Assembly (NCBI RefSeq): GCF_964355755.1
Contig: NC_092678.1
Coordinates: 14,224,371 to 14,288,370 of the forward strand
Origin: Antedon mediterranea
Taxonomy: Eukaryota > Animalia > Echinodermata
Length of the DNA: 64,000 bases
Direction of reading: 5' to 3'
Shown piece after piece: positions 28-54,821 of the stretch. Position 1 is the stretch's first letter, and each line of letters starts with the position of its first letter. A program made the translations under genes and the position numbers. A model generated the notes under the pieces. It saw only the letters and a program-made list of their open reading frames with translations, ran no database searches and was not told the DNA's origin.

Positions 28-124
28 TATGGAGACACTACACTACATAGGTATGTGCGATATTCTAACAGCAATAGTGACTTGTCTCACATAGTATGGC
101 GCATCAGTAACATCACAACATGTT
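28..124 (+). pseudogene. Degenerate ankyrin exon (97 nt, frameshift and stop)
   Basis: ttctag|TATGGAGACACTACACTACAT.. (YGDTTLHRY). 8 nt shorter than paralog 724-828; TAG in the homologous frame. Confidence 0.75.
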
Positions 125-3100: not shown

Positions 3101-5754
3101 AATTGTTGTCTCTGATTGGTCGAATAAGTTTTGTGCCGTGTTGTTGTTACGACGGAAAATCTGATATTCCCTAACAAGTATGACTTTAAATCTTGTAATC
3201 AGGTAATTTATCCATTTTTTTTTTCATATTTCATAATTTTAAAAGCAACATTTAATCTTACATTAACTATTTAAACGAATGCGGCAATGTAAATTAGTCT
3301 TAGTAGATACGTAAAGAGCGATATAGCATAGGGAGCGGGGATCTACTCGCGATGTTGTTGAAAAACGTTACGTCACGCTAATTTGCGTGTACTGATGTAG
3401 GCCTCCACTCGTCGTACCACATACAGCAGTACAAACACGTGAGACGAAGGGAGGTGGGCCGGTGGCTGGCACCCCGCCCGGGTAGCTAAAAGAAGACCGC
3501 CGATATTATATAGGCCTAGGGGATGATACTAAACATGATCTTAACATATTTACTGTCATTTCAACCTACTCTGACTAGGCGTAAAAAGACAAAATTCGGA
3601 TATTATTATATAGGCCTATGGCCAACCTCTCTTCATTTTTTTTAGGAATTAAGCACAAAAAATAGGGCTACTATATGTAAGCCTAGCTAGGCTATCCTAT
3701 ACTGTCTAATAAAAGGTCAGGCAGCCGCTACCCGACTGGGCCATGGTCTAGATCTAAACACCAGATCTAATAGATATACAATATAGGGCCTATGCCTAGG
3801 TAGCCTGGTAGGCACAGCTATGCACTGAAATCTTAACCTCGGAATGTTTATATAATTAATATAAGAGTAGCCTGCCTTTTTTAGTAGCTAGGCCTAGTTA
3901 ATTATAACTTATGTAGTAATTATACTTAGGCTAATAGTACAGTAGTGAGGCTAGGCCTCTATAGTCTAAGTACTGTAATACTATTTATTCTTTATCAAAC
4001 CTATAGGCCTAGTAGGCCTATGCGATATATATTTCCTCTGTGTAAACTACAGATTATATTCTATTAATGTATTTGTTGTGATATCTATTTCATTTACCTT
4101 AGATATCTTATACTACTATTAAACAATGCAGTACTGTACTGCATCATTTGCAGAGAAACAATTGATGAGAAGAGTTATAAATCTGTATCAATCAGACAGA
4201 AAGGTATGTTTAGTTACATTTTTCTCTGGCATTATACATTATAATTTTTTTTCCCAATTACATTTTCATCTTCAATGAACTATAAAAACAAATGAAAGTT
4301 TGTTTTTCACTGTATAATTTTGTTACTCACTGTATAATTTTGTTACTACTATTTTAGGAGCAGATAGTGTGAATACAGCGAGCATTCAAAGAGGATTGAA
4401 GCCCAATGCTGTTGCGGGGTCAGTGGTCCATACAAATTGCCAGAAGAATTACATAAACGTGAAGGTCATAAAATATGGTGTACATTTCAAGATACATACA
4501 TTCCTTGACCATGGTTTCAGTGAACTATTGGCAAGTTATTTAGTTTATGTAGTGTTGACTGTTATACTTTATTGTAAAGTAAATAATTAATGTTTATGAA
4601 TTGAATGGAGATAATAATATTTCAGAATGATTGACTTATATTTAACAGGGCAGAGAGTTAATTAATCTTTAAATGAATGAAATATTCTCTCCACTTCACG
4701 AAAAAATACATTCATTATTATTATAAACTTTTATTCAATATATGTGTAATTATTGTACTTATTACTTGAGTTTCCTGTCTCTTGTAATAAGAAATGTTTA
4801 CATAAATGTACTTATACTTATTATTTGAGCTTCCCATCTCTTATGATAGTACAGTACAAACAATGTTGAAATACATACTTGTGTTTCAAGTACCGTAATT
4901 TAAAATGATATATAGTATAGTATATAATAATACTGGTGTATATTATTACTAATTACTTTTAAATTTCTCATATTTTGTGTCAGTAATACTGTTATGAAAA
5001 GATTGAAGTAAACACGACATCTCATATTTTTAAGAGCTATGCATGTTTGTTATATTCAACATCTATTCATGAGATCTTTTTGACTAGTTTGTACCTGTAC
5101 GTATTTGAGAATGATCAGATTTGGTTGAAAATATTAACGTTCAGATTAAATATGTGTACAAATTACAAACAAAAATTAAAAATAACTGGCTGGGTCGAGT
5201 TTATTTACTAGAAAAATAATGCAACTGACCAGCTGCAGCATGTTAATTTATAAGTAGTGCTCGGGTAAATGATTTCTGTGTACATCTTATGAAAACTACA
5301 GTACTGCCATTATTAAAATGCACATTGCACGACTGAACTATTTTATACATATACAGTAGTACATGTAAATGCATGTAAAAAGAAATGATGTGTGCAATAT
5401 AATATAGTTACTGTATTTATGAAAATAAATATTGAGAAATTACTTTACAAAATGTAATTTGTGTTAGGCCTATTTGTCGTCCAATGTCGTATACAGTACT
5501 CGTAATAGGGCTAGTATACAGTATTAAAATAAAATAATCATCATGGGTTAACAAAATTAATTTATCTTACAATTTATTTAAGGGCTATCCAATGAGACAT
5601 ACTGTAATAAAAATTCCTTCACTTTCTAGTGTTGCCCGAAAGCTCTGCTAATTTTTTCTGGCTGTTTTACTTTATCGTTTTGATTTAGCTTTTCGCTTTT
5701 TTTTTGTATCTCATTGTCATTTTTTCAGTAATTTGCCTTTGGATAAATAATAAT

Positions 5755-5837
<83 letters not shown>

Positions 5838-6489
5838 ACATTAGGCAATGAACATTAATTCGAAACCGCCCGGTGATATACTGAAATTTAATTAATTAAT
5901 TTGAAACGATAAAGATGAGAAAATCTGTGAGAATGAGAAAAAGTCGCCCCAACCGAGACTCGAACTCGGACCGCCTGCTTGATATGCAGATGTCCTAACC
6001 ATTAGACCACTGGGGCTTTCATGGTATTTCAGGATCTCCGAAGAGATACTTTTATATATATAAACACATCAGGCAATGAACATTAATTCGAAACCGCCCG
6101 GTGATATACTGAAATTTAATTAATTAATTTGAAACGGATAGTAGAATGTGATGAGATCCCGCCTCGTGAATAAAAATACTGTAAGATGAGGGCGTATCAA
6201 TTTGATCTCTGGTGCGCGTGCGTACAACTGAGGACTAGTGCTGTTCCGCCGTACCACGCCGAGAATGTTAAAGAGTCGCTATCCAATCGAGTTCAAACAA
6301 TACCATGAAAGCCCCAGTGGTCTAATGGTTAGGACATCTGCATATCAAGCAGACGGTCCGAGTTCGAGTCTCGGTTGGGGCGACTTTTTCTCATTCTCAC
6401 AGATTTCCTCATCTTTATCGTTTCAAATTAATTAATTAAAGTTCAGTATATCACCGGGCGGTTTAGAATCAATGTTCTGTGCGTGATTT

Positions 6490-6545
<56 letters not shown>

Positions 6546-15500: not shown

Positions 15501-15788
15501 GTAGTGACATTACAGACAACATAAAGACAAGACAAAGGTGCAATACATAACAAGACATGTGAACACTTGTGTTTGCAACCCCTTGGATAAAATAATATAT
15601 TTATATAAAGGAGAAAATTAGATATTATATTTCTTTTTGATCATAAAATGATAATTTTTAACTTACTTCTTAAGAAGGTTAACATGAAGATTACATATAG
15701 TTATTTTTATTTTTACTAGTACATGGTAATAAAATCTCAATATCATCTTTTAGATAAAAAATGTAATAGATTTACATACACACACATA

Positions 15789-15857
<69 letters not shown>

Positions 15858-18607: not shown

Positions 18608-18646
<39 letters not shown>

Positions 18647-23106: not shown

Positions 23107-23197
<91 letters not shown>

Positions 23198-34375: not shown

Positions 34376-34411
<36 letters not shown>

Positions 34412-35038
34412 TATATATTATTATAACTGCCGCAATCCCAATGAATGCCCGCTCCCAGGTAACTGCCTAACAAAAGGTGTAGTTTACCAAGCTACAATAA
34501 AGAGAGAAGATTCATCAAAAGAAGAAACATATGTCGGACTAACTGAAAACCAGTTTAAAACCAGATACAGAAATCATACGTCTTCATTCCGGAACGAAAA
34601 ACTAAGAAATGCAACGGAACTCAGTAAATATATATGGACACTTAAAGACTCTAAAACAAATTACTCAATTAAATGGAAAATTATAAAGAAATGCAAACCT
34701 TACTCAAATATTAATAAAGGATGTAATTTATGTATATATGAAAAGTATGTTATTATATGTCAACCAGAGCTATGCTCACTGAATCGTAAGAACGAGTTAG
34801 TCTCTACTTGTAGACATATGAAAAATTTTTTACTAAATTGCAGATCCAAACAGTTTATCTAAAACAATAGTCTATTGTATACGACTTCCTGATGACTCAC
34901 TTCTATTAAGCACTATGAGACAACTGTGTCACTTATGTTTTATATTTCACCTGAAGAGTGCGGCTAGCTACATGCTGGTCGTACGAAACAAATTTGTAGT
35001 GATTAAAACAATGAAGTAACCAAGGTTTCTGCTGTTAT

Positions 35039-35120
<82 letters not shown>

Positions 35121-38100: not shown

Positions 38101-38466
38101 TTCTAAAGCGGGACAACGATTTTTAGGTGGATTCCAGGAACTTTTTGGTTTAAATGTGTTAGCGTTGCCTTCGTTTTGCGTGGTGCTGCTATCTGAATCA
38201 GCAAAATGTTCACGTAATCGTAATCTTCTGGAGAAAGACTCCATATCCAAAGATAGTTGTTGTGCGCCGACCTGCCTTGGTTTTGGACAGAATTTAAGTC
38301 CTCGGGAAAGAAGTTATATATATATATATATATATACATATATATAAATATATATATATATATATACAAAATTTGTGATGTCCCCTTCGGGCCATTGCCG
38401 TTGATTGCTTACGGCAATTCATTGGCGATAATCCTGAGTTTGTTTTGAAACTCGGATGCAGGAAGT

Positions 38467-38504
<38 letters not shown>

Positions 38505-41500
38505 ACTTCCTGCATCCGAGTTTCAAAACATATATATATATATGAGAACTTCCTGCATCCGAGTTTCAAAACAAACTCAGGATTATCGCCAATGAATTGC
38601 CGTAAGCAATCAACGGCAATGGCCCGAAGGGGACATCACAAATTTTGTCTACCTGCAGACTTGGTCATTTCAACACAAATGACTCTACCTTCGGATGATT
38701 TTAGGGCGTTTAGGAAACCCTGCAGAAGGTTCGTTCGGACTTATAACAAGAATCGGAGCAACACCTCTGATTCAGTTGTTGAAATTAATTGCCGACTTTC
38801 CGAAGGAGAGAAAAAACTTCTTTCCCGATGACTTAAATTCTGCCCAAAACCAAGGCAGGTCGGCGCACAACAACTATCTTTGGATATGGAGTCTTTCTCC
38901 AGAAGATTACGATTACGTGAACATTTTGCTGATTCAGACAGCAGCACCACGCAAAACGAAGGCAACGCTAACAAATTTAAACCAACAAGTTCCTGGAATC
39001 CACCTAAAAATCGTTGTCCAGCTTTAGAAACATTTATTCAGGCTATTGAGGAGGATGTACAAAACTACGTCCCGAGTCCAGATAAACGTGACAATCTCTC
39101 AAAACAAGAGAGGCAGGCCATTGCCAAATTGCGTCAGCGTAATGATATTATCATTAAACCAGCTGATAAAGGTTCTGCCACTGTTGCCATGGACATCAAA
39201 TTTTATGAAGTGGAGTCCGTAAGACAGCTAAACAATCCTCTTCATTATCGTAAACTTACAACGGATCCCACCCCGGAAATTGCGGATAAGGTGGCCAAAT
39301 CTGTTTCTGTGATGGTAAAAAAACACTCCATCGATCCTAAGATTAGACCTCATTTGGCACAGGTCAATCCAGTATCAGTCAGATTTTATTTCCTACCTAA
39401 AATCCACAAAGCAGGCAATCCTGGTAGACCCATTATTTCGGGCAATGGCACTGCTACAGAGAAAATTTCTGAATATGTGGATGATTTACTAAGACCATAT
39501 GTGATTGATCTCCCTTCATACATCCAGGACTCCACGGACTCTATCAGCAAAATTAACCAAATTCAAAATTTACCTAGTAATTCTGTTCTGGCTACATTAG
39601 ATGTTTCATCATTGTATACTAGTATCCCTCACGAAGAAGGAACCGACGCATGTATTTTAAATTACATACAAATTCCAGGCAAAACGCATACTAAAGCTCA
39701 TTTACGAGAATTGGTCATGTTGATTTTAACCAACAACAATTTTATTTGTTGAAATGACCATGAATTTGAAATTCATGGCACAGCGATGGGCACAAAAATG
39801 GCGCCATCTTTTGCAAATTTATTTATGGGACAATTTGAAGCCAATTTTCTGTCCCTCCAACCAAATAAACCACTTGTTTAGTTTAGATACATTGACGATA
39901 TCTTCATGATCTGGACCCATGTTGAAGATAATTTGGAATCTTTTCTTCTCAATATTAATTCAGCCCACCCAGCAATCAAATTTACAGCTACCAAATCCAC
40001 TAGTAGCGTTGATTTTTTGGACACTATAGTGACCATAGAAAATGGTACACTCAAAACTGACCTATTCCGTAAACCCACGGATAAATGTACCTGCTCCCTA
40101 GAAGTTGTCATCCCCGACACTGTACTAAAAACATACCGTACAGTCAAGCATTACGTATCAGACGTATCTGTTCTTCAGATTTAGATTTTCAGAATCGTAC
40201 CAAAGAACTAACCGGACATTTCCGGAATAGAAATTACAAGAAGGAATACATCGAAACTGCTATAAAGAAATCAAAAGATATTCCTCGATGTCAAACACTG
40301 ACGTACAAACCACGTCAGCCAAAAAAATTTGACCTGAGTGCCATTGGTCACAACCTACCACCCTAGGTTGCCTCCATTACGGGGTATTATTGAGAAACAT
40401 ATGCCCATTCCACAGTCCACAGAACGTCTCAGGACTGTTTTTCCGGAACCACCCATTATTGCATTTCGTAGACCTCCAAACCTTCGTGATATATTAGTCA
40501 GATCCAAATTTAAGAGTGAAATTAACTCTCATGACAGCCACAATTTGGGCAGTCACCTTTGCGGCAAATCTTGCAAAACTTGTTCATTGGTTGATTCTAC
40601 TGAAACATTTGAGAGTAACCAAACTGGCCGCATTTTTCGGAAAAGACAATCAATTAATTGCCTAAACAAAAACGTCATTTATCTCATATACTGTAATATT
40701 TGTGGCAAACAGTACGTCGGAGAAACAAAAAACACTCTCCGTATGAGAATGACACAACATAGATCGGCTATCAAAACATTAAAGCTTGATCAACCTGTAG
40801 CCGAGCATTTTAATTCAGCTGGTCACTCGATTGCAAATTTCAGAGTTATTGCAATAGACCACAATGTCAAATGGAGCGACAAAACTCGCAAAGACAAAGA
40901 AAACCACTGGGAATTACTACTTAAAACCACAAAACCTTTTGGACTTAACATTAGGAATATACTCCCAGATCGGTAAAATTACTCCATTGACTACCAACAT
41001 TTAAGTTTCAATATTAACCACCATTTAATCTATTTTTAAGTCTCATTCCAAAATTGTTTATATCTCTACCAAGCTACCTTATTTGTTTTCTACTCTTATT
41101 CAGACTCGACCATGGCTCCCTTTGTTATATTTCTTTTATTCCTGTCCACCCAGGCAGCACTTGCCAGCTTTATACTATGACGTTATCCAAATTCCTTCAC
41201 TTGCACTGGTGAAGGGCTTGTGTTGCTCGAAAGCTCTGCTAACTTTTCTGGCTGTTTACTTTATCGTTTTGATTTAGCTTTTCCCTTTTTATTTTTGTAT
41301 CTCCATTGAGATCCAGCCACTGATACCCACTTTAACGATAAAGTAAACAGCCAAAAAAGTTAGCAGAGCTTTCGGGCAACACTAGCCCTTCATCAGTGCA
41401 AGTGAAGGAATTTGGATAACGTCATAGTATAAAGCTGGCAAGTGCTGCCTGGGTGGACAGGAATAAAAGAAATATATATGTGCGTGTGTGTGTGTGTGTT

Positions 41501-44500
41501 TAATTATCCGCATCGTTTGTTTAATTACATTTTATATTGTATGAATAATACGTGTGATTTGCAATGAAATTGAGAGAAAAGTGACTTACGTACATCTTCC
41601 TTATTATAATATAATAATATATATTTATAAAGGTTTTTTACCACATAGTAAATAAATGGAGGTATCTTTTTTTGTGTTTAGTTCAAGTGATAGTTAGGTC
41701 CATATGAAGTGATACCAGCTAATAGCATTTTGCCTAACTATAATTATTTTTCTGCAATACACTGTATAATATACACTTCATGAATATAATTTCTTTAAGG
41801 GACGGAAACACGTCACTGCATAAATACATGCGTTCTAATGAACCTACCTTAGAAGTAATATATAGGCTTTCGATATGGTATAATTATGATCACACCAACA
41901 AACCTATAATCTGCACCGCAAACATTATCTTATCCACTTTATTTTATATCATATTACAATTATAAAAGAGCTGAATTTATGTTATCCGTTGTGTCTAACA
42001 GTATCATTTATAAGAATAATTATATTTTATGTTTATGATTTCTTCACAGAATGGATATGGATACACACCGATAAATATTTATCTGGAGCGTGATGATGTT
42101 AAATTAGATATATTGTACTGTCTGATAACCAATGGTGAATCACAAACATTACGAAAAGATGTAATTCGACAAAAAATGTAAATTGAAATAGTATGGCATA
42201 CTGGTAATAGTACACGTATGCTTAATAATAATTACTATTTTTGCTCCGTTCTTGCTCATCATTAGTATTACATTCAAATACATGTTAATTAGTATTAACA
42301 TGATGCAACTGCTCTTGGTATACATAATATATTTTAGCTACTTTCGATTAATATGATTTAAAAATATTTATTTATTAAAAATATAACATTTTTTATTTTT
42401 TTAGGAAGGAAGCAATGCTCTACATATACATCTAAGTGGTAGATATGTTAAACCTACGTTAGAAATAGTGACTAATCTCATTAAGCTTGGTGTATCTCCA
42501 ACATTACAGAATAAGGTAAAGTGCATAAGAGTTGGCATATATTCCCGTGAACTAACATTGTGTAATTATCTGGTGGGACTCAAACACACCTCAGATCACG
42601 AGTGTTGTGTTGTTCATAACTCTATACCTGCACAAGAGTGGTTACAACAACCAAATACAGTTGGACACCACTAACGTTCGTGGTACCGAGATTAAATCTC
42701 TAAATAGGAAAAGAAAATATATATTTTTTTAATTATCCGCATTCTTTGTTTAATTTAATTATTTATTGTGTAAATTAAGTACGTATGATTTATAATGAAC
42801 TTGAGAGAAAAGTGTCCTACGTAAGTAAAGTAGTAAAGTTGAAACCTAAGCTAATGCTAGCGACCTTGGTGCCAATCTCCATTTCCTTAGCGTTTGGGCC
42901 AGGCTCCACTAAGTATGTATGTTTGCGGGGGTACGCCACTCACGCAAACACGAGTCTGATTTACCTTCCCAGTACTTTTACATACCGGTACCCATTTCTA
43001 TCACCTGGGTGGGGAGGAACAGTGTGGATAAAGAATCTTGCTCAAGGACTCAACACCGCCGTGACCGGACCGGGCTTTAACCGGCAACCTCTTGATTGCA
43101 AGTCCAATGCTCTAACCACTGCGTCACAGTGCTCCACTAAGTGCTGCCTTACGTACGTCTTCATTATTATGTAATACTACATCTTCATATCACATTTCAT
43201 AAGGTAATAGGGATAGAGATAATTTATTGAATGAATTATCAATTTAACTATGTTTTATGTAGACATGTCATTATACAATGGTTGAATTTAGAATGATGAC
43301 TGAAGCAATGTTCACATTAATCTGTATGTATAAACTACACGATTATGTTTTTTTTGTCAGTAAAATTGCAAAATTAGGGAATCCACAGACAATTGGTAAA
43401 ATTCGGTCTACGTTCAGAGCATAAGCACCAGTAAAATATTTTTTTTTTTATTTATGTGTGTATTATTTATCATTGCATAACTAAAATTATTTTCTGCAAT
43501 AACCTTTATGTATAATTTCTTTATATGATGGAAAAACCCCGCTGCATGAATACATGCGTTCAAATAAACCTACCTTAGAAGTAGTAAACTATCGTAGGAA
43601 ACAAGGTGCTTCAATAACAGCACTAAGTAAGGTAATATAGGGTTACAGATAAGTTATTATGATTGCACCTATAACATACGTATGATCTGCACCGCAACAA
43701 TATCGTATCCACTTATTTTATATCATATTACAATTGATAAAGTTATTTAGAATTACTTGCTGCTGCAATAATTATTTAGTAGTAATTAAACAAGATCCTA
43801 CAGTTATTGTGAGATTGGTATATTGACTATAATAATTTTATGTGGACATGCTATTATAAAAGAGCTGAATTTAGAATCATGACAGAAAGCAATGTTTACG
43901 TTGACATATATGCATAAACTACACGATTATGATTTCTTTTATGATTCTGTAAAATTACAAAATAAGAGACAATTGATATAATTCGGTCGACGTTCACAGG
44001 ATATCCACAAGAAAAACGTTTTATTTAAATTTCTTTGTTTGTATTGTTTATCATTATCTAACTATAATTATTTGCTGCAATACACTGTTTGTATAAACTT
44101 CATGATTATAATTTCTTTAAAGGACGGAAACACCCCGCTGCATGAATACATGCTTTCAAATGAACCTATCTTAGAAGTAGTAGACTATCTCACGAAGCAA
44201 GGTGCATCCGTAACAGCACTAAATAAGGTAATAATGGGCTAGAGATCATTTCAAAATAAGGGAATGCATAGACAATTGATATACTTCGGTCTACGTTCAC
44301 AACATATGCACCAGCAAACATTTTATTTCAATTTTTGTTGTGTATTATTATCATTAACTCATTAACTAACTATAATTATTTCCTTCAATACACTGTTTGT
44401 ATAAACTTCATGATTATAATTTCTCTATAGGACGGAAACACTCCGCTGCATGAATACATGCGTTCAAATGAACCTACCTTAGAAGTTGTAGACTATCTCA

Positions 44501-47500
44501 CGAAGCAAGGTGCATCCGTAACAGCACTAAATAAGGTAATATATGGCTACAGATAAGTTATATGATTGCACCTAACGTCGGCGAAATTATGTTTATTTAT
44601 CTATTTTTTACCTCATTTAAAATATAATGTTTTGGTGTGATGTCACTTACAACAATGGCATCAAAATAATCAATAAGGATACGAATGAATTATGACTGGA
44701 AGAACACGCCGCGGAATGTTCAAATGTTCTATTCCAGTACTAATACTACTTTCAATTACAACCTAACTATCTCATATTGCATCTTGCATAACACTCAACA
44801 TCTCCTTACCACAATACTAATTTTCATATAGATTCCAATATATTCATGGTATGTGGTACTGATATTGTTTACGTTTAATAATAAACTTTGTCTTAATATT
44901 TTGTTTCTCTATAGGACGGAAACACCACGCTGCATGAATACATGCGTTCAAATAAACCTACCTTTGAAGTAGTAAACTATCTCAGGAAACAAGGTGCTTC
45001 AATAACAGCACAAAACAAGGTAATATAAGTCTAGAAATAATTTATAATTATGATTACACCTATAACGTACGTATGATTGTCACGAACTCCTCTCACGTAT
45101 GTTTCCGGGCGGTTGAAAATACTTTAGAAACTCCCTTGTGACATAAAAGTATAAATACAAAATCCACAAAGTTGTAAAATAACTCAAAACAAAGCTTTAA
45201 TTTCAATCAACTTCAACTTTTAACAATCCAGTAAGCACTTTAAACAACAGCTTCACAATGACTTTACAATATAACATCCAACCTCTAATCCAACAACCTT
45301 ACAATAGTTTACATTCCTTTATATACAAGATGCTCCTATCCTTCTAGATCATTCTTTATCATTATTACATGAATACAGTTTCTATTAATAGCACTTCTGG
45401 AATGTTCTTGATTGTTCTTATTAATTATACATGGTTTCTTAAATCAAAACATCTTATTCTAGAATGTTCATGTAAATACTATGTTACTCTATGTTAGAGA
45501 ATGGTAATTTATTACAATGATATGTGCCGCAAATATATGTTATCCACTTTATTTCGTATCATATTACAATTGATTGAGTTATTTAGAATTACTTGCTGCA
45601 ATCATTATTTAGTAGAAATTAAACAAGATCCTACAATTATTGTGGGATTGGTATATTGATTATGTTTTATGTGGACATGTCATTATAAAAGAGCTGAATT
45701 TAGAATCATGACAGAAAGCAATGTTTACGTTAACCTGTATGCATAAACTACACGATTATGATTTGTTTTATGATTCTATAAAATTACAAAATAAGAGACA
45801 ATTGATATAATTCGGTCTACGTTCACAGGATATGCACCAGCAAACATTTTATTTCAATTTCCTAACTATAATTATTTGCTGCAACACACTGTTTGTATAA
45901 ACTTCATGATTATAATTTCTTTAAAGGACCGAAACACCCCGCTGCATGAATACATGCGTTCAAATGAACCTACCTTAGAGGTAGTAGACTATCTCACGAA
46001 GCAAGGTGCATCCGTTACAGCACTAAATAAGGTAATAATGGGCTAAAGATCATTGCAAAATAAGGGAATGCGCAGATAATATTGATATACTCCGGTCTAC
46101 GTTCACAACATATGCACCAGCAAACATTTTTATTCCAATTTGTTTGTGTATTATTATCATCATTACCTAACTACAATTATTTCCTTCAATACACTGTTTG
46201 TATAAACTTCATGATTATAATTTTTCTACAGGACGGAAACACTCCGCTGCATGAATACATGCGTTCAAATGAACCTATCTTAGAAGTAGTAAACTATCTC
46301 ACGAAGCAAGGTGCATCCGTAACTGTACTAAATAAGGTAATATATAGCTACATATAAGTTATATGATTACACCTAACGTCTGCGAAATTATGTTTATTTA
46401 TCTATTTTTTATCCTATTTAAAAATGTAATGTTTTGGTGTGATGTCACTTACAACAATGGCATCAAAATAATCAATAAGGATACGAATGAATTATGACTG
46501 GAAGAACACGCCGCGGAATGTTCAAATGTTCTATTCCAGTACTAATACTACTTTCAATTACAACCTAACTATCTCATATTGCATCTTGCATAACACTCAA
46601 CATCTCCTTACCACAATACTAATTTTCATATAGATTCCAATATATTCATGGTATGTGGTACTGATATTGTTTACGTTTAATAATAAACTTCGTCTTAATA
46701 TTTTGTTTCTCTATAGGACGGAAACACCACGCTGCATGAATACATGCGTTCAAATAAACCTACCTTTGAAGTAGTAAACTATCTCAGGAAACAAGGTGCT
46801 TCAATAACAGCACAAAACAAGGTAATATAAGTCTAGAAATAATTTATAATTATGATTACACCTATAATGTACGTATGATTGTCACGAACTCCTCTCACGT
46901 ATGTTTCCGGGCGGTTGAAAATACTTTAGAAACTCCCTTGTGACATAAAAGTATAAATACAAAATCCACAAAGTTGTAAAATAACTCAAAACAAAGCTTT
47001 AATTTCAATCAACTTCAACTTTTAACAATCCAGTAAGCACTTTAAACAACAGCTTCACAATGACTTTACAATATAACATCCAACCTCTAATCCAACAACC
47101 TTACAATAGTTTACATTCCTTTATATACAAGATGCTCCTATCCTTCTAGATCATTCTTTATCATTATTACATGATTACAGTTTCTATTAATAGCACTTCT
47201 GGAATGTTCTTGATTGTTCTTATTAATTATACATGGTTTCTTAAATCAAAACATCTTATTCTAGAATGTTCATGTAAATACTATGTTACTCTATATGTTA
47301 GAGAATGGTAATTTATTACAATGATATGTGCCGCAAATATATGTTATCCACTTTATTTCGTATCATATTACAATTGATTGAGTTATTTAGAATTACTTGC
47401 TGCAATCATTATTTAGTAGAAATTAAACAAGATCCTACAATTATTGTGGGATTGGTATATTGATTATGTTTTATGTGGACATGTCATTATAAAAGAGCTG

Positions 47501-50500
47501 AATTTAGAATCATGACAGAAAGCAATGTTTACGTTAACCTGTATGCATAAACTACACGATTATGATTTGTTTTATGATTCTATAAAATTACAAAATAAGA
47601 AACAATTTATATAATTCGGTCTACGTTCACAGGATATGCACCAGCAAACATTTTATTTCAATTTCCTAACTATAATTATTTGCTGCAACACACTGTTTGT
47701 ATAAACTTCATGATTATAATTTCTTTAAAGGACCGAAACACCCCGCTGCATGAATACATGCGTTCAAATGAACCTACCTTAGAGGTAGTAGACTATCTCA
47801 CGAAGCAAGGTGCATCCGTAACAGCACTAAATAAGGTAATAATGGGCTAAAGATCATTGCAAAATAAGGGAATGCGCAGATAATATTGATATACTCCGGT
47901 CTACGTTCACAACATATGCACCAGCAAACATTTTTATTCCAATTTGTTTGTGTATTATTATCATCATTACCTAACTACAATTATTTCCTTCAATACACTG
48001 TTTGTATAAACTTCATGATTATAATTTTTCTACAGGACGGAAACACTCCGCTGCATGAATACATGCGTTCAAATGAACCTATCTTAGAAGTAGTAAACTA
48101 TCTCACGAAGCAAGGTGCATCCGTAACTGTACTAAATAAGGTAATATATAGCTACATATAAGTTATATGATTACACCTAACGTCTGCGAAATTATGTTTA
48201 TTTATCTATTTTTTATCCTATTTAAAAATGTAATGTTTTGGTGTGATGTAGCTTACAACAATGGCATCAAAATAATCAATAAGGATACGAATAAATTATG
48301 ACTGGAAGAACACGCCGCGGAATGTTCAAACGTTTCTATTCCAGTACGAATACTACTTTCAATTACAACTATCTCATATTATTGCATCTTGCATAACACT
48401 CAACATCTCCTTACCACAATACTAATTTTAGAATACAATACAATTCATGGTATGTGCTACTCTTATTTTTTAAGTTTAATAATAAACTTCGTCATAATAT
48501 TTTGTTTCTCTACAGGACGGAAACACCCCGCTGCCTGAATACATGCGTTCAAATAAACCTACCTTAGAAGTAGTAAACTATCTCAGGAAACAAGGTTCTT
48601 CAATAACAGCACACAATAAGGTGATATAAGTCTAAAAATAATGTATATGATGATGAGTTATTTAGAATTACTTGCTGCAATAATTATTTAGTAGTAATTA
48701 AACAAGATATTACAGTTATTGTGAGATTGGTATAATGACTATGTTTTATGTGGACATTTTTATTATAAAAGAGCTGAATTTAGAATCATGACAGAAAGCA
48801 ATGGTCACGTTAACCTGTATGCATAAACTACACGATTATGATTTTTTTTATGATTCTGTAAAATGACAATATAAGAGACAATTGATATAATTCGGTCTAC
48901 GTTCACAGGATATGCACAAGAAAAACGTTCAATTTCTTTGTGTAATGTTTATCATTATATAACTACAATTATTTGCTGCAATACAGTGTTTGTAAGCTTC
49001 ATGATTATAATTTCTTTTAAGAACGGAAACACCCCGCTGCATGAATACATGCGTTCAAATGAACCTACCTTAGAAGTAGTAGACTTTTTCACGAAGCATG
49101 GTGCATCCGTAACAGCACTAAATAAGGTAATAATGAACTAGAGATCATTTCAAAATAAGGGAATGCACAGACAATTGATATACGTCGGTCTACGTTCACA
49201 ACATATGCACCATCAAACATTTTATCTAAATTTATTTTTGTATTATTATCATTATACCTAACTATAATTATTTACTGCAATACACTGTTTGTATAAACTT
49301 CATGATTATAATTTCTTTAAAGGATGGAAACACCCCACTGCATGAATACATGCGTTCAAATGAACCTACCTTAAAAGTAGTAAGCTCTCTCAGGAAACAA
49401 GGTGCATCCGTAACAGCACTAAATAAGGTAATATGGGCTAAAGATCATTGCAAAATAAGGGAATGCGCCGATAATATTGATATAATTCGGTCTACGTTCA
49501 CATCATATTCACAAGCAAAACCTTTTATTTCAACTTCTTTGTATTACCAAATTATAATTATTTGCTGATTTACACTGTATTTATAAACTTCGTGATAACA
49601 ATGTTTTCTCTATAGGACGGAAACACCCTGCTGCATGAATACATGCGTTCAAATGAACCTAACTTAGAAGTAGTAGACTATCTCACAAAGCAAGGTGCAT
49701 CCGTAACAGCACTAAATAAGATAATATAGGTCTAGAAATAATGTATATGATTTCAACTAACGTACGTATGATCTGCACCGCAACATATCATCTTACCCAC
49801 TTGATTTCATATCGTATTAAAATTGATCGAGCTATTTTAATTGCTGCAATAATTATTTAGTAGTAATTAAACAAGATCCTACAATTATTGTGAGATTGAT
49901 ATATTGAGCAATGAAATTGATACTTTTTTTATGTGGACATGTCATTATACATTTTTTGAATTTAGAATAATTACAAAAAGCAATGTTCACATTATCTTAA
50001 ACTATTATGATTTCTTTTTTCTTTTCTTGGATTTTTCTTTACATTTCATTAACATTTCAAAATAAAGGAATGCACAGACAAGTGATATAATTCAGTCTTT
50101 GTCCACAACATATGCACCAGCAAAACCTTTTATTTCAATCTATTTGTGTATTGTATATCAAAATCTAACTATAACTATTTGCAACAATAACCTGTATGTA
50201 TAAACTCCATGATCATAATTTCTTTATAGGACTAAAACACCACACAGCATGAATAATTAGTCATTTGAATGATAGTTGTTTTGTTTCTTCAAAAACATTT
50301 AATCCAAATTCTAGCAAATTGATTACGTCGCCCATGCATATACACTATACTAGTACAAAAATGCCTTTCATTAAATGTTCTTTAAACTTAATTTTAAATA
50401 GAGTTAAAAACAAAATCATTTTGTTAACATTAATTATAAATACTATAACTTTATTGCGTGAATTAGTTCCCTTTGAAGAGACGTTGTTTATTATTGCATG

Positions 50501-53500
50501 AGTTATTACCACATTGAGGGCGCAGTTATTTTGTATGGAAGGCTGCACGCAATTTTAAGTTTATCTGGAAATATAGCTTTTAAAAGGTATTCCCTGATTG
50601 TTTACTATGTTTAAATTTACCAGTATATAGTGTACGGTAATGATAGTTAATTATTATTGGGCTTACGCGGAGCTACACATTGGAAGGATGGGAGATGTCC
50701 TGTCACTGGTCATTCAATATTACATTTACGGCGAAATTATGTTCCTTTATTTGGTTTTGACCCCATTGAATTGAATAGTCATGAAGAAAGTAATGTATTG
50801 TGTATATGGTTGTATATATACATGATTTGCAATATTGTAATAAATACCAATGGATACGGAATTGTTTGTTAGTTAGTGTAAATAAGAACCGTTCTTCATT
50901 ATAGACATCTGTAAGTACAAGGTGTTTAGAAGTATACTAACTAGAATGTTTTACATATGTATATTTGTTGTTTTTAATTTATTTAAGTTTACCGCAATTT
51001 TAGGTTTGGGATTCCCTTTTGATGAATACATTTAAATTAATATTTGAATTTCAGAACGGGGTTTACAATTACTATGAAACAGTGTACTTTGTACTGCGAC
51101 ACGGTATTTTCTTAGAAGCTCTATGCTTAATTTAGAATTGACTTATGATGTGTCTACAAAAATATTCATTTTGATTTGCTTGTTGTTTGCACTCACTTAC
51201 TACGATTGGGGTTTTATATATGTCTGATTCCATAGACATATTGTTTCTTTGATTTCTAAATCGGTTTATGAACAAATATTTCTACTATTAGCAATGCTTA
51301 AAACACTTTTATGTTTATAGGAAGGAAAAACAGCAGTATCTGTTTTAGAAGAAAATACGCAGATAGAACAAATAACAAAAATCAAGATTGTAGAGTATTT
51401 TGACAGTAAGCTATTATAATAAAATTTTTAACATGAAAAAGACAATGTTAGTAACAAATATTTGAATTCTGAAACAAATGTTATTCATAATGTTTACATA
51501 AAACCATGAATTTGAATGTATGTATGTTATGCGTATTTTCTATATCTTAATATTAGAATTGTTGGTTCCTCCTGAAATATTTGCCAGGGGTAAACAGGCT
51601 ATAAAAATATATAAAAATGAACTTAAAGATGGTAAAATTGCAGTGGTAAATTCGAGATGTATGTTTCTTGGGAAGGAAGGTGCTGGTAAGACTAGCTGTG
51701 TAAAGGCCATGCTTAAAGAAAGGTAAGTAATTGCAAATTATTTAACGTATACATCATACATTTTAGTATTGAAAAAATGATCAGTGTATTTTTAATTATA
51801 TATTTGATGTAGATACTAATACTATTTTAACCATTTTACCTCACCATACGTTGTTAAAATAGATTCAATCCCGACGAACCATCGACAGACGGTATCGTTA
51901 CACGGACAGTGTTTCAATCAAATAGTAAGAGTGAATGGAAGAGGATTAAAGATGAAAACGACGGTAAGATGTGTGTAACTACCTGTAGAGTAGAAAATCG
52001 AGTTTCTGCCGTCATGTGATGCCAAGCGAACGTGGAATTAATATCTGTGATTGTAGTACTAACAAGTAGAGTTTTGTTATACTCTTACTCTAGAGTTGTG
52101 GCTTGTTAAATTGTGTAGACCTATACTTATTAGAGAAATTACCAACAATGTACCAGGAATAGGCACGATGTTATATGTAATGTTTAAAATGATTTTATTA
52201 CACATTGATCCAGATTAAATGAAATTCAGTGTTTCCTATAAACTCCAACCAGCATAAATATTTGTATACATATTGTTTTAACCAATTGCTATTTTTGTAC
52301 AGATGCCGACCTAATCAGGAAAATGCGTGAACATGTAATAATACAAAGGGTTAATAAGGAGTTAGGTATGTAATACCGCAACACAAATTATAATATAAAG
52401 CTTTTTAACAATTGAAATAAATCATTTAACCTTGAACCATATTTTTTAAACGGAACTATTATACAAATAATGAATGTTTATTAGTGTAATGATACAATAT
52501 GCCCTAATTGCATGAGGTTAATGATGAAAGGTTATATATCAACGAGGCAACGCCAAGTTAATATTTAACCTTTCATCATTCACCAAATGCCATTATTTGT
52601 ACCATTACACGAATATAACATTTATTATTTGTTTATATAACATCAAAATAGATTCCTGTCATTTGAATCAAATAAAAGGTAGCCCTCTAGCCAAGGCCTA
52701 CATTTGATTCACATTGATTAAAACAGTAACATTTGGTTTTTAATAATATTATATTAAATGTTATATTTATATGGATTTTATAAACACACGTACTTTAGTG
52801 TTAATTATGTTCATAAACGACCAAACAATCATAATACTAACAGGCCTAGGCTTATGCTAAACCCTAGTAGTAGCTTGACGCTGATTACATTTTAATGTAC
52901 TATTATGTAAATATGAAATGCAATTTTGACAGTACATGGCCAGGCAATACTGCCTCTCATATGTTGTTGCTGTTGTTTGATATTGTAGGTATAAGTTAAA
53001 AACGTAAAGGTAGGCGTCTGGATCGTTTAAAATGTACAAGTTAAATAATACGATTTTATGTAATATGAGATAATATGAATGTGAATAAAAGTGGTGTTTG
53101 CGCCACAAAAGAGAAAAAAAAATGGTACTTTGTCAAAATGGTCGATATTCGGCAATCTATAAATACTTTTATTTTATTTATTTTATAATAGAGGACAACC
53201 AAAGCTACCCAATTGGAGGTGATTCTGTGAACATTCCAAATGAAATAACTAGCATATGGGACTACGCTGGTCAATTGGACTATTACATAACGCACAGGGT
53301 ATGCCTATCAATATGTTGTTTATTGGCAGAATATGATCTGATAATCACATAATTAATGTAGTAGTAGTGATATTGACAGTGATGGTGGTGGTGGTGGTAG
53401 TGGCAGTGACATTAGTAGTAGTAGTGGTAGTGGTATTAGTATTTAGGGCCTATATTGCGTTTGAATAATCTGAAAACAATTATATTCTAATAATTTTTTC

Positions 53501-54444
53501 TCGATTTACAGTATATTGTTTTCCCCCCACTTGTTAAACAAGCGAAGATGGCTTTATCTCAATAGAGTTGCCCAGACATCTATCTAATGTTACATTAAGA
53601 TTACAATTATGAGTAGTGTTTTATTATAATTATCATGACTTGCACCATGTTCTTGACACGCACGTGTATATTAATTTGTAATTATGTCTTTAAAACATTG
53701 TTTAATAATAGTCTTATATACTACGAAGAACTTGCGGTCCACATTCTTATATACGCAACGGTGTTAAACTGTAATTATTTTCCTCCTTATATTCTTTAAA
53801 AAGGAATAAAAAGAAATATAATATGTAGCGTTCTGATTTAACATTAGTATCGACATACTCGCTTCAATATGCAGTATTCCCGCTACAATTATTGCATCGA
53901 TGTAGGCTTACTACATGTCACTAATTATAATAAAAGACTCTCTCCCGATAGAATATGGATAATTATCCATCATAATAACCACCTTATATCTGTATTTTGT
54001 TGTTCAGTTTTTCCTCACAAATACAGCATCGTACTGTGTTGCATTTAATGCTTTGGATAACTTGGATGAACCAGCTAATGCAAGAGATCCATCAGTTGTA
54101 AGTTCAACATTATTTTAAACTTCAATTATTACTATCATTAATTGTTACTCGTAATAAACAAAATGTTTTATTACAAAAAATATATACTAATATAGTATAT
54201 TACCGTACATTACAATTTTTTTTATTTTACCTACCTTTTATTTTAGGGTCCACTAGGAATGACTAACTTAGACATGAATTTGTTTTGGATAAGGTCAGTA
54301 TATGAGCATACTGTGGCGCAACATGCTTCAGGAAACCCCATTTCAATTGATGGCAGGGTTTCCATAGAGTCACCTCCCATCAGTTTGGTTGCTACTCATA
54401 TGGACAAATTGCCATCATGGAGAAAATCGAGAAATCGTAAAAAG
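28..54444 (+). CDS. Multi-exon ankyrin-repeat + ROC GTPase (ROCO family) gene, partial at both ends
   Basis: Chain of AG/GT-bounded exons with compatible phases. Phase-0 ankyrin exons lead into 51321-51405, 51557-51722, 51863-51963, 52303-52365, 53192-53298, 54008-54097 and 54247-54444, which splice in frame to give [37 protein letters not shown] and [11 protein letters not shown]. Joining the distant 5' exons to this gene is inference. Confidence 0.85.
724..828 (+). CDS. Ankyrin-repeat exon (105 nt, phase 0)
   Basis: tag|[35 protein letters not shown]|gtaac. Confidence 0.9.
1003..2682 (+). mobile_element. Non-autonomous Helitron-like element, copy 1
   Basis: 3' 13-bp-stem hairpin CTAGATGGTACGC..GCGTACCATCTAG ending CTAG|T (2646-2682). 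It interrupts an intron whose flanks match the paralogous intron at ~260-480, and ~1115-2682 is an inverted near-copy of 23235-24780. The left boundary is approximate. Confidence 0.7.
2010..2360 (-). mobile_element. CR1/L2-group LINE 3' end captured inside the Helitron
   Basis: Translates [37 protein letters not shown] followed by a (TTA)n tail; also present in copy 2 (~23580-23910). Confidence 0.7.
2830..2892 (+). pseudogene. Truncated ankyrin pseudo-exon (duplicate of 28-124)
   Basis: Near-identical to 28-90, then similarity stops abruptly at TAGCCCAGAC (2893). Confidence 0.75.
2893..5600 (+). mobile_element. Possible Academ-like DNA transposon remnant with intron-containing N-terminal Zn-finger exons
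   Basis: Begins TAG where the ankyrin exon breaks off. Segments ~4137-4203 and 4359-~4470 splice to [47 protein letters not shown] (CxxC..HxxC). Family assignment is from memory and the right end was not found. Confidence 0.35.
5610..5745 (+). mobile_element. Penelope (Neptune-like) pseudo-LTR fragment
   Basis: Matches 41190-41300 and the reverse complement of 35757-35930; hammerhead core partly deleted. Confidence 0.75.
5757..5833. repeat. (TA)n microsatellite
   Basis: Direct reading. Similar runs at 6494-6543, 15786-15853, 18606-18646, 23110-23196, 35045-35116, 38316-38365 and 38470-38498. Confidence 0.95.
5945..6016 (-). tRNA. tRNA-like cloverleaf (anticodon ATC), repeat-borne; probably not a canonical tRNA gene
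   Basis: Reverse complement of 6311-6382 with one change in the anticodon stem. Confidence 0.5.
6311..6382 (+). tRNA. tRNA-like cloverleaf (anticodon ATC), repeat-borne; probably not a canonical tRNA gene
   Basis: Acceptor GCCCCAG/TTGGGGC, A-box TGGTCTAATGG, anticodon arm TCTGC-ATATCAA-GCAGA, T arm CCGAG-TTCGAGT-CTCGG, followed by TTTTT. Confidence 0.55.
6590..7300 (-). mobile_element. Penelope-like (Naiad-type) RT fragment, degenerate, with internal duplication
   Basis: [40 protein letters not shown], then IG*YRDDGL; 7005-7170 and 7145-7300 are duplicated. Confidence 0.8.
11925..13075 (+). mobile_element. Inverted 3' end of an L1/Tx1-like element (zf-RVT region), ORF 11970-12716
   Basis: [31 protein letters not shown]; paralogous to 8800-9400 on the opposite strand and splits ORF2 of the host LINE. 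Confidence 0.75.
13875..14000 (+). mobile_element. Helentron-associated (HINE/DINE-1-like) short element
   Basis: TTTTT-AGTCGCGTAGACGCGACT palindrome, (GTCY)n tract, and a second ACGCGACT near the T-rich end. Confidence 0.55.
14975..15360 (+). mobile_element. Non-LTR RT fragment (CR1/L2-like)
   Basis: [41 protein letters not shown]. Confidence 0.75.
15854..16152. mobile_element. (TA)n-associated repeat family 2 (tRNA-like cassette): minus copy plus inverted tail
   Basis: 15854-16057 includes the reverse complement of ~18444-18610; 16058-16150 is an inverted copy of ~15856-15940. Confidence 0.7.
16159..18288. mobile_element. Non-autonomous TIR element with 5-bp TSD (hAT-like)
   Basis: TIRs CAGGGCCGTAGCCAGG / CCTGGCTACGGGCCTG (15/16 match); TSD ACAAT on both sides. 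Confidence 0.8.
16915..17988. mobile_element. Nested non-autonomous hAT element with 8-bp TSD
   Basis: TIRs CAGGGGTGGCACCAG / CTGGCGCCACCACTG; TSD GACCAAAC at 16907-16914 and 17989-17996. Confidence 0.8.
18425..18496 (+). tRNA. tRNA-like cloverleaf (Pro-like body, anticodon TGT) within repeat family 2 (~18300-18606)
   Basis: GGCTCTG TGGTCTAGTGGTATGAT A CTCGC-CCTGTAA-GCGAG AGGTT GCAGG-TTCGAAT-CCAGC CAGAGAC A TTTTTT; two stem mismatches. Confidence 0.5.
18640..20880. mobile_element. Jumbled CR1/L2-group LINE fragments on both strands
   Basis: Minus: QGPILWND (~18800), [13 protein letters not shown] (~19150), [11 protein letters not shown] and YKYLGV (19326-19695). Plus: a 3' end at 19960-20880. 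19861-19943 is an inverted copy of 19143-19226. Confidence 0.65.
20900..22740 (+). mobile_element. CR1/L2-group (Crack/Daphne-like) LINE, RT and 3' end, degenerate
   Basis: ORF 21334-22161 [43 protein letters not shown]; ORF 22362-22664 EGPSYWNKL. Confidence 0.85.
23235..24964 (-). mobile_element. Non-autonomous Helitron-like element, copy 2
   Basis: On the minus strand it runs 5' TCTATATATA ... hairpin-CTAG|T 3'. It is inserted with no TSD into a family-2 repeat tail (flanks rejoin to match 15881-15935). Confidence 0.8.
25200..26150. mobile_element. Probable DNA-transposon terminal region with repeated GCCATTTTG/AAGATGGCGGCC motifs
   Basis: Recurrent short inverted motifs typical of non-autonomous TIR elements; ends not resolved. 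Confidence 0.35.
26243..26347 (+). CDS. Ankyrin-repeat exon (105 nt)
   Basis: tag|[35 protein letters not shown]|gtaat. Confidence 0.85.
27400..31400 (-). mobile_element. BEL/Pao LTR retrotransposon internal region, degenerate
   Basis: Gag Zn knuckles (~31200-31300), protease [31 protein letters not shown], RNase [10 protein letters not shown], integrase [23 protein letters not shown]; no LTRs found. Confidence 0.9.
30172..30490 (-). mobile_element. tRNA-derived SINE inserted in the BEL element
   Basis: Minus-strand A box TGGCAGAGCGG and B box GGTTCGAGGC at the 5' end; interrupts BEL pol. Confidence 0.65.
33632..33736 (+). CDS. Ankyrin-repeat exon (105 nt)
   Basis: tag|[35 protein letters not shown]|gtaat. 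Confidence 0.8.
33790..34375 (+). mobile_element. Repeat family 1, head-to-tail tandem (period 363 bp); tRNA-like cassettes at 33895-33965 and 34258-34329
   Basis: Near-identical to 6151-6495; units separated by a short (TA)n. Confidence 0.75.
34424..35045 (+). mobile_element. Penelope-like (Naiad-type) GIY-YIG endonuclease C-terminus and 3' pLTR
   Basis: [52 protein letters not shown], stop at 34862, then a hammerhead and (TA)n. Confidence 0.85.
34947..35002 (+). ncRNA. Type I hammerhead ribozyme (Penelope pLTR)
   Basis: TCAC-CTGAAGA-GTGCGGCTAGC tacat GCTGGTCGTAC-GAA-ACAAATTTGT-A-GTGA: stem I TCAC/GTGA, 11-bp stem II, palindromic stem III, GUA cleavage triplet. Confidence 0.8.
35278..35735 (-). 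mobile_element. Naiad-type Penelope RT-thumb/linker fragment
   Basis: [57 protein letters not shown]; overlaps in sequence with the start of the 34424 fragment. Confidence 0.8.
35757..38471 (-). mobile_element. Penelope-like (Neptune-type) element, left inverted copy: RT 36937-38250, GIY-YIG 36146-36784
   Basis: [43 protein letters not shown]; [19 protein letters not shown]; frameshifted. Confidence 0.9.
38499..41330 (+). mobile_element. Penelope-like (Neptune-type) element, right copy: RT 38880-~40330, GIY-YIG 40338-40976
   Basis: Inverted paralog of the left copy with its own stops (38828, 39750, ~39880). Confidence 0.9.
41363..41399 (-). ncRNA. Minimal type I hammerhead ribozyme in an inverted pLTR (41334-41475)
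   Basis: GCA-CTGATGA-AGGGC tagtgtt GCCC-GAA-AGCT-C-TGC. Mutated copies at 41203-41239 (+, CTGGTGA) and 35883-35919 (-, GAAA>AAAA). Confidence 0.75.
41801..41857 (+). pseudogene. Truncated ankyrin pseudo-exon
   Basis: [19 protein letters not shown], then the 3' half is deleted; the homologous acceptor reads GG. Confidence 0.75.
42050..42160 (+). CDS. Divergent ankyrin-repeat exon (111 nt)
   Basis: cag|[37 protein letters not shown]|gtaat. Confidence 0.7.
42405..42515 (+). CDS. Divergent ankyrin-repeat exon (111 nt)
   Basis: tag|[37 protein letters not shown]|gtaaa. Confidence 0.8.
42823..43135 (-). mobile_element. tRNA-derived CORE-like SINE
   Basis: Minus-strand head GCAGTGGTTAGAGCA; core-like TCTTGCTCAAGGACTCAAC; absent from the paralogous intron segment at ~41575-41610. 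Confidence 0.65.
43527..43631 (+). pseudogene. Ankyrin exon (C type) with dead acceptor
   Basis: Open 105-nt frame [35 protein letters not shown], but the acceptor reads AT. Confidence 0.75.
44123..44227 (+). CDS. Ankyrin exon A1 (105 nt)
   Basis: aag|[35 protein letters not shown]|gt. Confidence 0.85.
44431..44535 (+). CDS. Ankyrin exon B1 (105 nt)
   Basis: tag|[35 protein letters not shown]|gt. Confidence 0.85.
44915..45019 (+). CDS. Ankyrin exon C1 (105 nt)
   Basis: tag|[35 protein letters not shown]|gt. Confidence 0.85.
45078..45516 (-). mobile_element. Solo LTR with 5-bp TSD
   Basis: ATGAT|TGT...ACA|ATGAT; empty sites at ~43680 and ~49767; TATA-like and ATTAAA signals on the minus strand. 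Confidence 0.8.
45927..46031 (+). CDS. Ankyrin exon A2 (105 nt)
   Basis: aag|[35 protein letters not shown]|gt. Confidence 0.85.
46232..46336 (+). CDS. Ankyrin exon B2 (105 nt)
   Basis: cag|[35 protein letters not shown]|gt. Confidence 0.85.
46717..46821 (+). CDS. Ankyrin exon C2 (105 nt)
   Basis: Same translation as C1; AG/GT intact. Confidence 0.85.
46880..47320 (-). mobile_element. Solo LTR, duplicated copy with the same ATGAT TSD
   Basis: Near-identical to 45078-45516, including flanks. Confidence 0.8.
47731..47835 (+). CDS. Ankyrin exon A3 (105 nt)
   Basis: Same translation as A2; AG/GT intact. Confidence 0.85.
48036..48140 (+). CDS. Ankyrin exon B3 (105 nt)
   Basis: Same translation as B2; AG/GT intact. 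Confidence 0.85.
48516..48620 (+). CDS. Ankyrin exon C3 (105 nt)
   Basis: cag|[35 protein letters not shown]|gtgat. Confidence 0.8.
49022..49126 (+). CDS. Ankyrin exon A4 (105 nt)
   Basis: aag|[35 protein letters not shown]|gt. Confidence 0.85.
49323..49427 (+). CDS. Ankyrin exon, A/C mosaic (105 nt)
   Basis: aag|[35 protein letters not shown]|gt. Confidence 0.85.
49616..49720 (+). pseudogene. Ankyrin exon with dead donor
   Basis: Open frame [35 protein letters not shown] followed by AT instead of GT. Confidence 0.75.
50230..50255 (+). pseudogene. Truncated ankyrin pseudo-exon
   Basis: tag|GAC TAA AAC ACC ACA CAG CAT GAA TA after a typical array intron, then unrelated sequence. Confidence 0.65.
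51321..51405 (+). CDS. C-terminal capping ankyrin half-repeat exon
   Basis: tag|[28 protein letters not shown]+1|gtaag; its phase fits the next exon. Confidence 0.8.
51557..51722 (+). CDS. ROC exon 1 (pre-ROC helix and P-loop)
   Basis: [55 protein letters not shown]; AG/GT intact. Confidence 0.9.
51863..51963 (+). CDS. ROC exon 2 (switch I)
   Basis: [33 protein letters not shown]; phases 2/1 fit. Confidence 0.85.
52303..52365 (+). CDS. ROC insertion exon (63 nt, phase 1-1)
   Basis: cag|[20 protein letters not shown]|gtatg. Confidence 0.65.
52465..52630. repeat. Long imperfect palindrome, probably part of a non-autonomous element
   Basis: ATGATGAAAGGTTA../..TAACCTTTCATCAT and outer arms around a GAGGCAACGCC centre. 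Confidence 0.6.
53192..53298 (+). CDS. ROC exon (switch II/G3)
   Basis: [35 protein letters not shown]|gtatg. Confidence 0.9.
54008..54097 (+). CDS. ROC exon
   Basis: cag|[30 protein letters not shown]|gtaag. Confidence 0.85.
54247..54444 (+). CDS. ROC exon (G4)
   Basis: [37 protein letters not shown]|gtaat. Confidence 0.9.
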
Positions 54445-54821
54445 GTAATTCATTCTTGAGTGAATGAACTGAACAATCTAACATGATATGATACTGAATA
54501 CCAATGATGCTAATTTAGCTTATCAATTATTCCTCATCCAATTTAATTCTTGTATCAATAGGTGCTGTCATTAATGCCACGTAATAGTTATTAACTTTGA
54601 ACCAAAAGTTGGATAGAAAAAACAATTATTTGCCAAAAAAAACATTAATTTAAAACAAGGTTAAGTAGAAGAAAAGGTACTTCAGTCAGGAAATGACCTT
54701 GGGGTATTTCATGGTGGTTGCGCAAGAGTTATGTAATTACCGCCAGGTGTTTCTAATGAAGGTCATTCATTTCCTGGTACTTCAGCCCAAAGTTGACCTT
54801 GGTGTATTTCCTGGTGGTTAC

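Follow-up and report, generated by a model that had tools for sequence, protein, structure and literature searches.

The crinoid Antedon mediterranea carries a ROCO GTPase gene whose predicted ankyrin sensor is encoded by a long series of symmetric exons, each holding a single repeat, upstream of a capping exon and an open ROC domain. In the reading that we favor, to which we assign a probability of about 0.58, the gene belongs to an expanded family of intracellular sensor-switch-effector proteins, and its sensor varies mainly in repeat number and by inheritance, not through regulated splicing. Positions below refer to the window, the whole 64,000-nucleotide (64-kb) stretch of DNA that was analyzed.

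One repeat per exon

A search of the 64-kb window with an exon profile (nhmmer, E<1e-7) recovered 22 ankyrin exon copies, all on the + strand and spanning positions 28 to 50257. No minus-strand copy was found in the window at E<1e-3, and the reversed window, used as a control, gave 0 matches at E<=10. Sixteen copies are intact, with AG/GT ends, phase 0-0, no stop codon and a length divisible by 3 (105 nt in 14 of them and 111 nt in the other 2), and any subset of these exons stays in frame. The remaining six, which start at 28, 2830, 41801, 43527, 49616 and 50230, are dead. The profile search thus bears out, in counts and in coordinates, the 16 intact and 6 dead one-repeat phase-0 exons proposed by the first-pass annotation of this DNA. 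Pfam Ank was matched by five of the six single exons scanned, 42405 alone giving no match. A layout of one repeat per exon is common among ankyrin genes; the available portions of PMC1553488 and PMC4494053 do not settle whether it is a general rule.

The copies fall into groups of different age and spacing. Upstream lie a dead exon with a frameshift (28-124, 97 nt), an intact divergent exon (724-828, 105 nt, phase 0-0), a dead, truncated copy of the 28-type exon (2830-2894), an older intact exon (26243-26347, 105 nt) and an intact exon about 15% away from the young copies (33632-33736, 105 nt). These five are ~7-25 kb apart, strewn across 33 kb of retroelements, and are absent from the RefSeq model of the locus; by position only, they may be putative members of the ROCO gene. 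Next come a dead half exon with a GG acceptor (41801-41854, 54 nt) and two divergent intact exons of a 37-residue type, both included in the RefSeq model (42050-42160 and 42405-42515, 111 nt each). The young copies are confined to 43527-50257. They open with a dead type-C exon whose acceptor is lost (43527-43631, now AT), followed by three A-B-C triplets of intact 105-nt exons over 44123-48620 (exon starts 44123, 44431 and 44915 in triplet 1; 45927, 46232 and 46717 in triplet 2; 47731, 48036 and 48516 in triplet 3). Two further intact exons complete the young array, one of type A (49022-49126) and an A/C mosaic that is the final intact repeat ahead of the cap (49323-49427); behind them stand a dead exon with an AT donor (49616-49720) and a dead, truncated remnant with a stop at codon 2 (50230-50257). 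Exon 724 differs from the young copies at 39-43 of 105 nt and exon 26243 at 22-27 of 105 nt. The earlier view of the array as young and turning over consequently holds for 43527-50257 and fails for the divergent exons 724, 26243, 42050 and 42405. No N-cap or ATG start exon was found within the 64-kb window (best E=0.06), and Rfam gave 0 matches in 41500-54600.

From the cap to the predicted effector tail

The C-cap exon (51321-51405, +, phase 0-1), modeled as two helices that extend the solenoid, is followed on the same strand by six ROC exons. Exon 1 (51557-51722) holds the P-loop (G1), exon 2 (51863-51963) the switch I region, exon 3 (52303-52365) a helical insertion and exon 4 (53192-53298) the DxxG motif (G3); exon 5 occupies 54008-54097, and exon 6 (54247-54444) bears the G4 motif, the following exon lying outside the window. 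AG/GT splicing of the cap and the six ROC exons yields 810 nt, or 270 codons, free of stops. This single open frame, in which the G1, G3 and G4 motifs are all found, upholds the proposed cap exon and intact spliced ROC domain.

With the last ROC exon as query, 12 of 14 candidate proteins were recovered, all from Antedon mediterranea. A cluster look-up led to the RefSeq model P0015 (XP_071961256.1, 1431 aa), which we take as the model of this locus because nine of the ankyrin exons, the cap exon and every ROC exon in the window agree with it to the letter. Its domain order is Ank-Roc-COR-A-COR-B-DED. Roc (37.5 bits, cut-off 27) and COR-A (56.1 bits, cut-off 35.3) exceed their Pfam cut-offs, in agreement with the assignment to the ROCO proteins, while COR-B (E=4e-4) and DED (E=2.9e-6) both score below theirs. 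The COR and DED-like domains are known from P0015 only, since their DNA lies beyond position 64000. The ROC domain is open in the DNA and the COR-DED half is an open frame in the RefSeq model, which speaks against pseudogenization of the downstream ROC-COR. P0015 sequence after the last ROC exon matches nowhere in the 64-kb window, so the intron after ROC exon 6 must exceed 9.5 kb. No kinase domain was matched in P0015, the true 5' end of the gene lying outside the window. The model uses 9 of the 16 intact ankyrin exons and skips four intact exons ahead of the cap. Its N-terminal 175 residues resemble, by eye, a retroelement at 38.8-39.7 kb and were set aside as a modeling artifact, not a real start.

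An AlphaFold model (21-row alignment) shows a continuous ankyrin solenoid capped by two helices, the block pLDDT being 84-97 in the young repeats; its ROC domain is partly of low confidence (pLDDT<50 at 409-498). Ankyrin and DARPin chains alone were among the Foldseek matches listed, which are uninformative on ROC. From its sequence, the protein is predicted to bind and hydrolyze GTP and to dimerize in a nucleotide-dependent manner. Against a 91-95% identical paralogue (P0014/P0001), the locus has its differences clustered in short patches at 51321-51405, 52303-52365 and ~54415-54444, which correspond to helix 2 of the cap, the insertion helix of the ROC and the stretch past G4.

An expanded family in crinoids

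Searches for ROC or COR similarity returned 23 Antedon models on 5 contigs, many of them fragmentary, and the same searches recovered 12 proteins from Anneissia japonica. A ROC-COR tree was built from 24 of 28 rows, P0013, P0014, P0032 and P0039 being left out for having <250 aligned residues. Antedon and Anneissia members form separate groups in it (100/100), which argues that each genus expanded its family independently. One Antedon paralogue, P0007, matches the prokaryotic Roco structures 4wnr, 3dpu and 6hlu as well as LRRK2. Among nine P-loop-bearing Antedon proteins, modeled repeats of the array type number from 0 to 9; these counts are lower bounds, as the locus model itself carries 9 of 16 intact exons. 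Borders of the repeat units in these proteins coincide, at the protein level, with exon borders at the locus. The 12 Anneissia proteins gave 0 matches to the locus repeat profile. Tails also change among relatives, with DED, Death, HEPN and ZU5 all represented. A separate Antedon protein, P0034 (XP_071943401.1), combines ~13 ankyrin units of the array type with a cap and has no Roc or COR match; the repeat type is therefore also used outside ROCO genes.

For the range beyond crinoids the ESM Atlas was the one source. It holds Roc/COR/Death clusters in molluscs (score 0.96) and Roc/Ank clusters in sponges (0.90; Ank in 41% of members) and arthropods, and the domain order is accordingly not new in animals. 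Literature searches, which cover subscription papers thinly, gave no paper on crinoid ROCOs among the matches listed, and the crinoid ankyrin-ROC-COR family is apparently undescribed.

Birth, conversion and death of repeat exons

Duplication, conversion and death of exons are all visible within one haplotype. The most recent event is captured by two three-exon units, 44536-46339 and 46337-48143, whose identity is 99.06%; across 1.8 kb, 14 sites and 2 gaps set them apart. Both contain a 439-nt insertion (45077-45515, no strand assigned) that the third junction lacks; its second copy (46879-47319, 99.3%) arose via this last unit duplication. In the DNA-like runs contig depth over the second copy is very high, and the insertion is therefore likely a mobile element. 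Exon 49323, otherwise of type A, carries a type-C tract at nt 61-75 that covers 3 of 7 diagnostic sites and probably reflects gene conversion. A four-gamete test gave a weak signal (5 of 136 pairs). The unit duplication and the mosaic exon are traces of the unequal crossover and conversion that the first-pass annotation had named as routes of diversification; its combinatorially diversified receptor is not supported.

Variation at the predicted binding face

Translated, the 11 intact young exons give 8 different repeats, and these present 4 strings at eight predicted face positions, which we take partly from DARPin design; one string is common to 6 of the 11. Ankyrin repeats are generally variable at the end of helix 1 and in the loop that follows. 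Four paralogues conform to this pattern, with 2.1-2.5 bits of entropy in 5 of 6 columns there, compared with 0-0.8 in the young exons. Nearest-neighbor differences tell the same story, falling at 35 of 99 face positions versus 38 of 308 elsewhere among the paralogues and at 3 of 48 versus 16 of 162 in the young array (p=0.57), the p-value of the face test being inflated because the face columns were picked partly after the paralogue entropy was known. The face differs in every one of the five older intact exons, and the paralogues, known at the protein level, vary there as well. It is probably from one paralogue to another, and within the set of five older exons, that specificity differs.

Substitution rates agree with this picture. 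Among young exons dN/dS is 0.51-0.56, with no excess of replacements, and in like-type, non-identical pairs exon divergence is 4-7% against 6-11% in the upstream introns. Older pairs have dN < dS in 5 of 6 comparisons (0.09 vs 0.30, for instance). Young exons are altered at core ankyrin positions (G2R, P5T, H7P), which fits relaxed constraint. By dN/dS, face strings and face-versus-rest counts, no sign of diversifying selection on the binding face was found in the array.

Splice junctions

Ten sequencing runs contain part of the stretch, four of which (X1, X5, X8 and X9) were compared; X8 and X9 are called RNA-like solely for their GT..AG joints, no run being recorded as RNA. Among the matches listed, X8 and X9 show five of the six cap/ROC introns, either as a joint or as a loose end; neither of the two GT..AG joints displayed has any depth in X1 or X5. 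One X9 contig contains the cap exon of the locus with 0 differences and continues into ROC exon 1. Each of the two RNA-like runs also has ankyrin-to-ankyrin ends and two types of ankyrin-to-cap junction. Splices from ankyrin to cap and from cap to ROC are thus present for the subfamily in RNA-like contigs, and the junctions whose absence would have spoken against an ankyrin-ROC gene exist.

Two junction types at first sight suggest a choice of exons. Among paralogues on the same contig, however, the array of P0013 closes with type C and that of P0014 with type A before the cap, and X9 contains two cap versions (depths 17.3 and 22) alongside the two junction types (16.3 and 17.8), which fits one junction per paralogue. 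Exons can share their ends without a difference for up to 51 nt. Exons 47731 and 49323 agree in all of their final 30 nt, so the exon skip in P0015 may be a mapping artifact. Introns between young exons measure 196-909 nt, and AAG is the acceptor in 5 of 11 young exons, a sequence usually weaker than TAG or CAG. In an ungapped test of two candidate regions for docking/selector pairing, 13 of 14 scores stayed within the range of 5 shuffles.

Other features of the contigs were considered and dropped. The absence of some window exon variants was not taken as array polymorphism, as contigs lose variants, and an 1835-nt skip was rejected as a unit deletion, since the same contig has a 31-nt skip. 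Backward intronic joints may stem from parts of the array outside the compared stretch.

How the sensor may vary

An immune role of the locus would be in keeping with its architecture and the dynamics of its family. The concave ankyrin face would bind a ligand, and at the far end of the protein the DED-like tail would cluster and recruit a DED partner, for instance FADD or caspase-8. Between the two, ligand would shift the GTP/dimer cycle of ROC-COR, by analogy with Roco proteins as described in PMC6337361. Intact exons would mostly be included jointly, with leaky in-frame skipping tolerated. The exon layout would permit repeats to be gained, lost or swapped in the germline without frameshift, and at this locus amplification of one repeat type would have led to a near-uniform surface and a change in avidity or length.

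The first-pass annotation had instead proposed a combinatorially diversified receptor, and one form of it, on the model of brown-algal ROCOs or Dscam, is a cassette library in which cells pick subsets of exons and draw many isoforms from one gene. Every subset is indeed in frame, both RNA-like runs have two ankyrin-to-cap junction types, 5 of 11 young exons have acceptors of a weak type, four intact exons ahead of the cap are missing from the RefSeq model, and such variants occur in Ectocarpus ROCOs (PMC11378527). The junctions are nevertheless explicable by P0013 and P0014, with depths to match, the skip in the model by shared exon ends, and pairing did not rise above shuffles in 13 of 14 tests. 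Skipping near-identical exons would alter length and hardly specificity. With young exons near-invariant at the face and no replacement excess, we consider regulated choice quite unlikely, and the annotation's own caveat, that length may matter more than sequence, is the better reading. A broader version pictures a natural DARPin-like system that feather stars evolved independently, a ROCO family whose ankyrin exons would be exchanged inside genes and from one gene to another, and would be skipped or somatically rearranged as well; each animal or cell would then have its own GTPase-coupled, death-effector-linked sensors. This is distinctly improbable; if true, somatic or splice diversification would be a new way for deuterostome invertebrates to diversify their receptors.

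The young array could also have arisen as a by-product, selection having been relaxed while an exon-intron unit prone to recombination was amplified, and the locus may be decaying, as are many members of the family. The dN/dS of ~0.51-0.56, exon divergence not far below that of the introns (4-7% vs 6-11%), altered core residues, 6 dead copies of 22, a window without an N-cap and the many fragmentary family models all lean this way. Against decay stand a ROC frame open over 270 codons, an open COR-DED half in the model, the locus cap exon spliced to ROC exon 1 in X9 and dN < dS in 5 of 6 older comparisons, which together make this account unlikely. Structural noise is a very improbable explanation. 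Here the upstream copies (28-33736) would be orphans or part of a different gene, or the assembly would have duplicated one of the triplets, as the wide spacing of those copies among retroelements, their absence from the RefSeq model and the 99% identity of two units might suggest. No remnant of ROC or COR separates the upstream copies from the array, however; the two units are distinguished by 14 sites and 2 gaps, and without either part at least 8 young exons remain. Inherited variation in repeat number remains the favored account, and with the births, conversions and deaths of its exons on a dated record the locus makes selection on repeat number directly testable.

Relation to known receptor systems

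Several well-characterized systems share part of this design. Like the locus, DAPK1 and the invertebrate ROC-COR-Death ROCOs join ankyrin repeats to ROC-COR and to a death-fold domain at the C-terminus. Humans have a single DAPK1 gene, in which the number of repeats is fixed. The locus differs from DAPK1 in lacking a kinase match (the 5' end being outside the window) and in having a DED-like instead of a Death tail. Arthropod Dscam1 likewise has tandem duplicated exons of one module within one gene, but its exons are mutually exclusive alternatives governed by docking/selector pairing, whereas those of the locus are near-identical and additive in series, and pairing was not found in the simple ungapped test. 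Exclusivity of the Dscam type is not seen here, as introns are 196-909 nt long and ankyrin-to-ankyrin junctions are present. NLR-type receptors also combine a repeat sensor, an NTPase switch and a death-fold effector, and like the locus family they show lineage-specific expansion and exchangeable effector domains. At the locus, by contrast, the switch is a ROC-COR GTPase and not NACHT/NB-ARC, and the order is reversed, with the sensor N-terminal and the effector C-terminal. The comparison points to a crinoid family with NLR-like logic on a ROC-COR switch.

The closest parallel lies outside animals. In Ectocarpus and Saccharina, exon shuffling takes place in ROCO genes of the LRR-ROC-COR type (PMC3341825; PMC11378527), and by analogy the locus can be regarded as their animal, ankyrin-based counterpart, much as the first-pass annotation suggested. 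Both have one repeat per symmetric exon before ROC-COR and dead repeat exons inside introns; in both families genes are clustered, many are broken, and repeat number varies among recent paralogues. The repeat exons differ (105-111 nt, phase 0, for ankyrin versus 72 nt for the algal LRR). The locus is moreover animal, has a DED-like tail, and lacks inverted repeat exons and any sign of positive selection in its array. Such similarity would amount to convergence of crinoids and brown algae on exon-modular repeat sensors. Among animals, ROCO domains are reported to adjoin TIR or Death domains in Aplysia (PMC9334734), and Trichoplax is credited with 17 ROCO genes whose domains vary (cited in PMC11378527).

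Neighboring elements

Mobile elements fill much of the remaining window. The intron after ROC exon 6 contains a LINE-type reverse transcriptase frame of 691 codons (56981-59053, -) and a Polinton/Maverick-like protein-primed DNA polymerase in several separate frames (DNA_pol_B_2, 60965-63533, -), the latter preceded by 151-bp and 628-bp repeats at 59468-60776. An inverted reverse-transcriptase pair, presumably Penelope-like, lies at 35792-41330 (arms of 1271 and 1009 nt, 97%), and the false N-terminus of P0015 apparently derives from its + copy. A decayed Pao/BEL LTR retrotransposon occupies 27300-31700 (-), with a Peptidase_A17 match at 28736-29455. Five ARAGORN tRNA-like calls with odd anticodons, in repeated or inverted elements at 5945-6382, 18424-18497 and 33895-34329, are probably tRNA-derived mobile elements. 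Two small exon-like frames with a CxxC motif at 4102-4477 (+) resemble a spliced transposon-associated gene fragment, and 58995-59260 (+) holds a possible micro-exon, together with a possible terminal exon that has a poly(A) signal; neither is related to the ROCO model.
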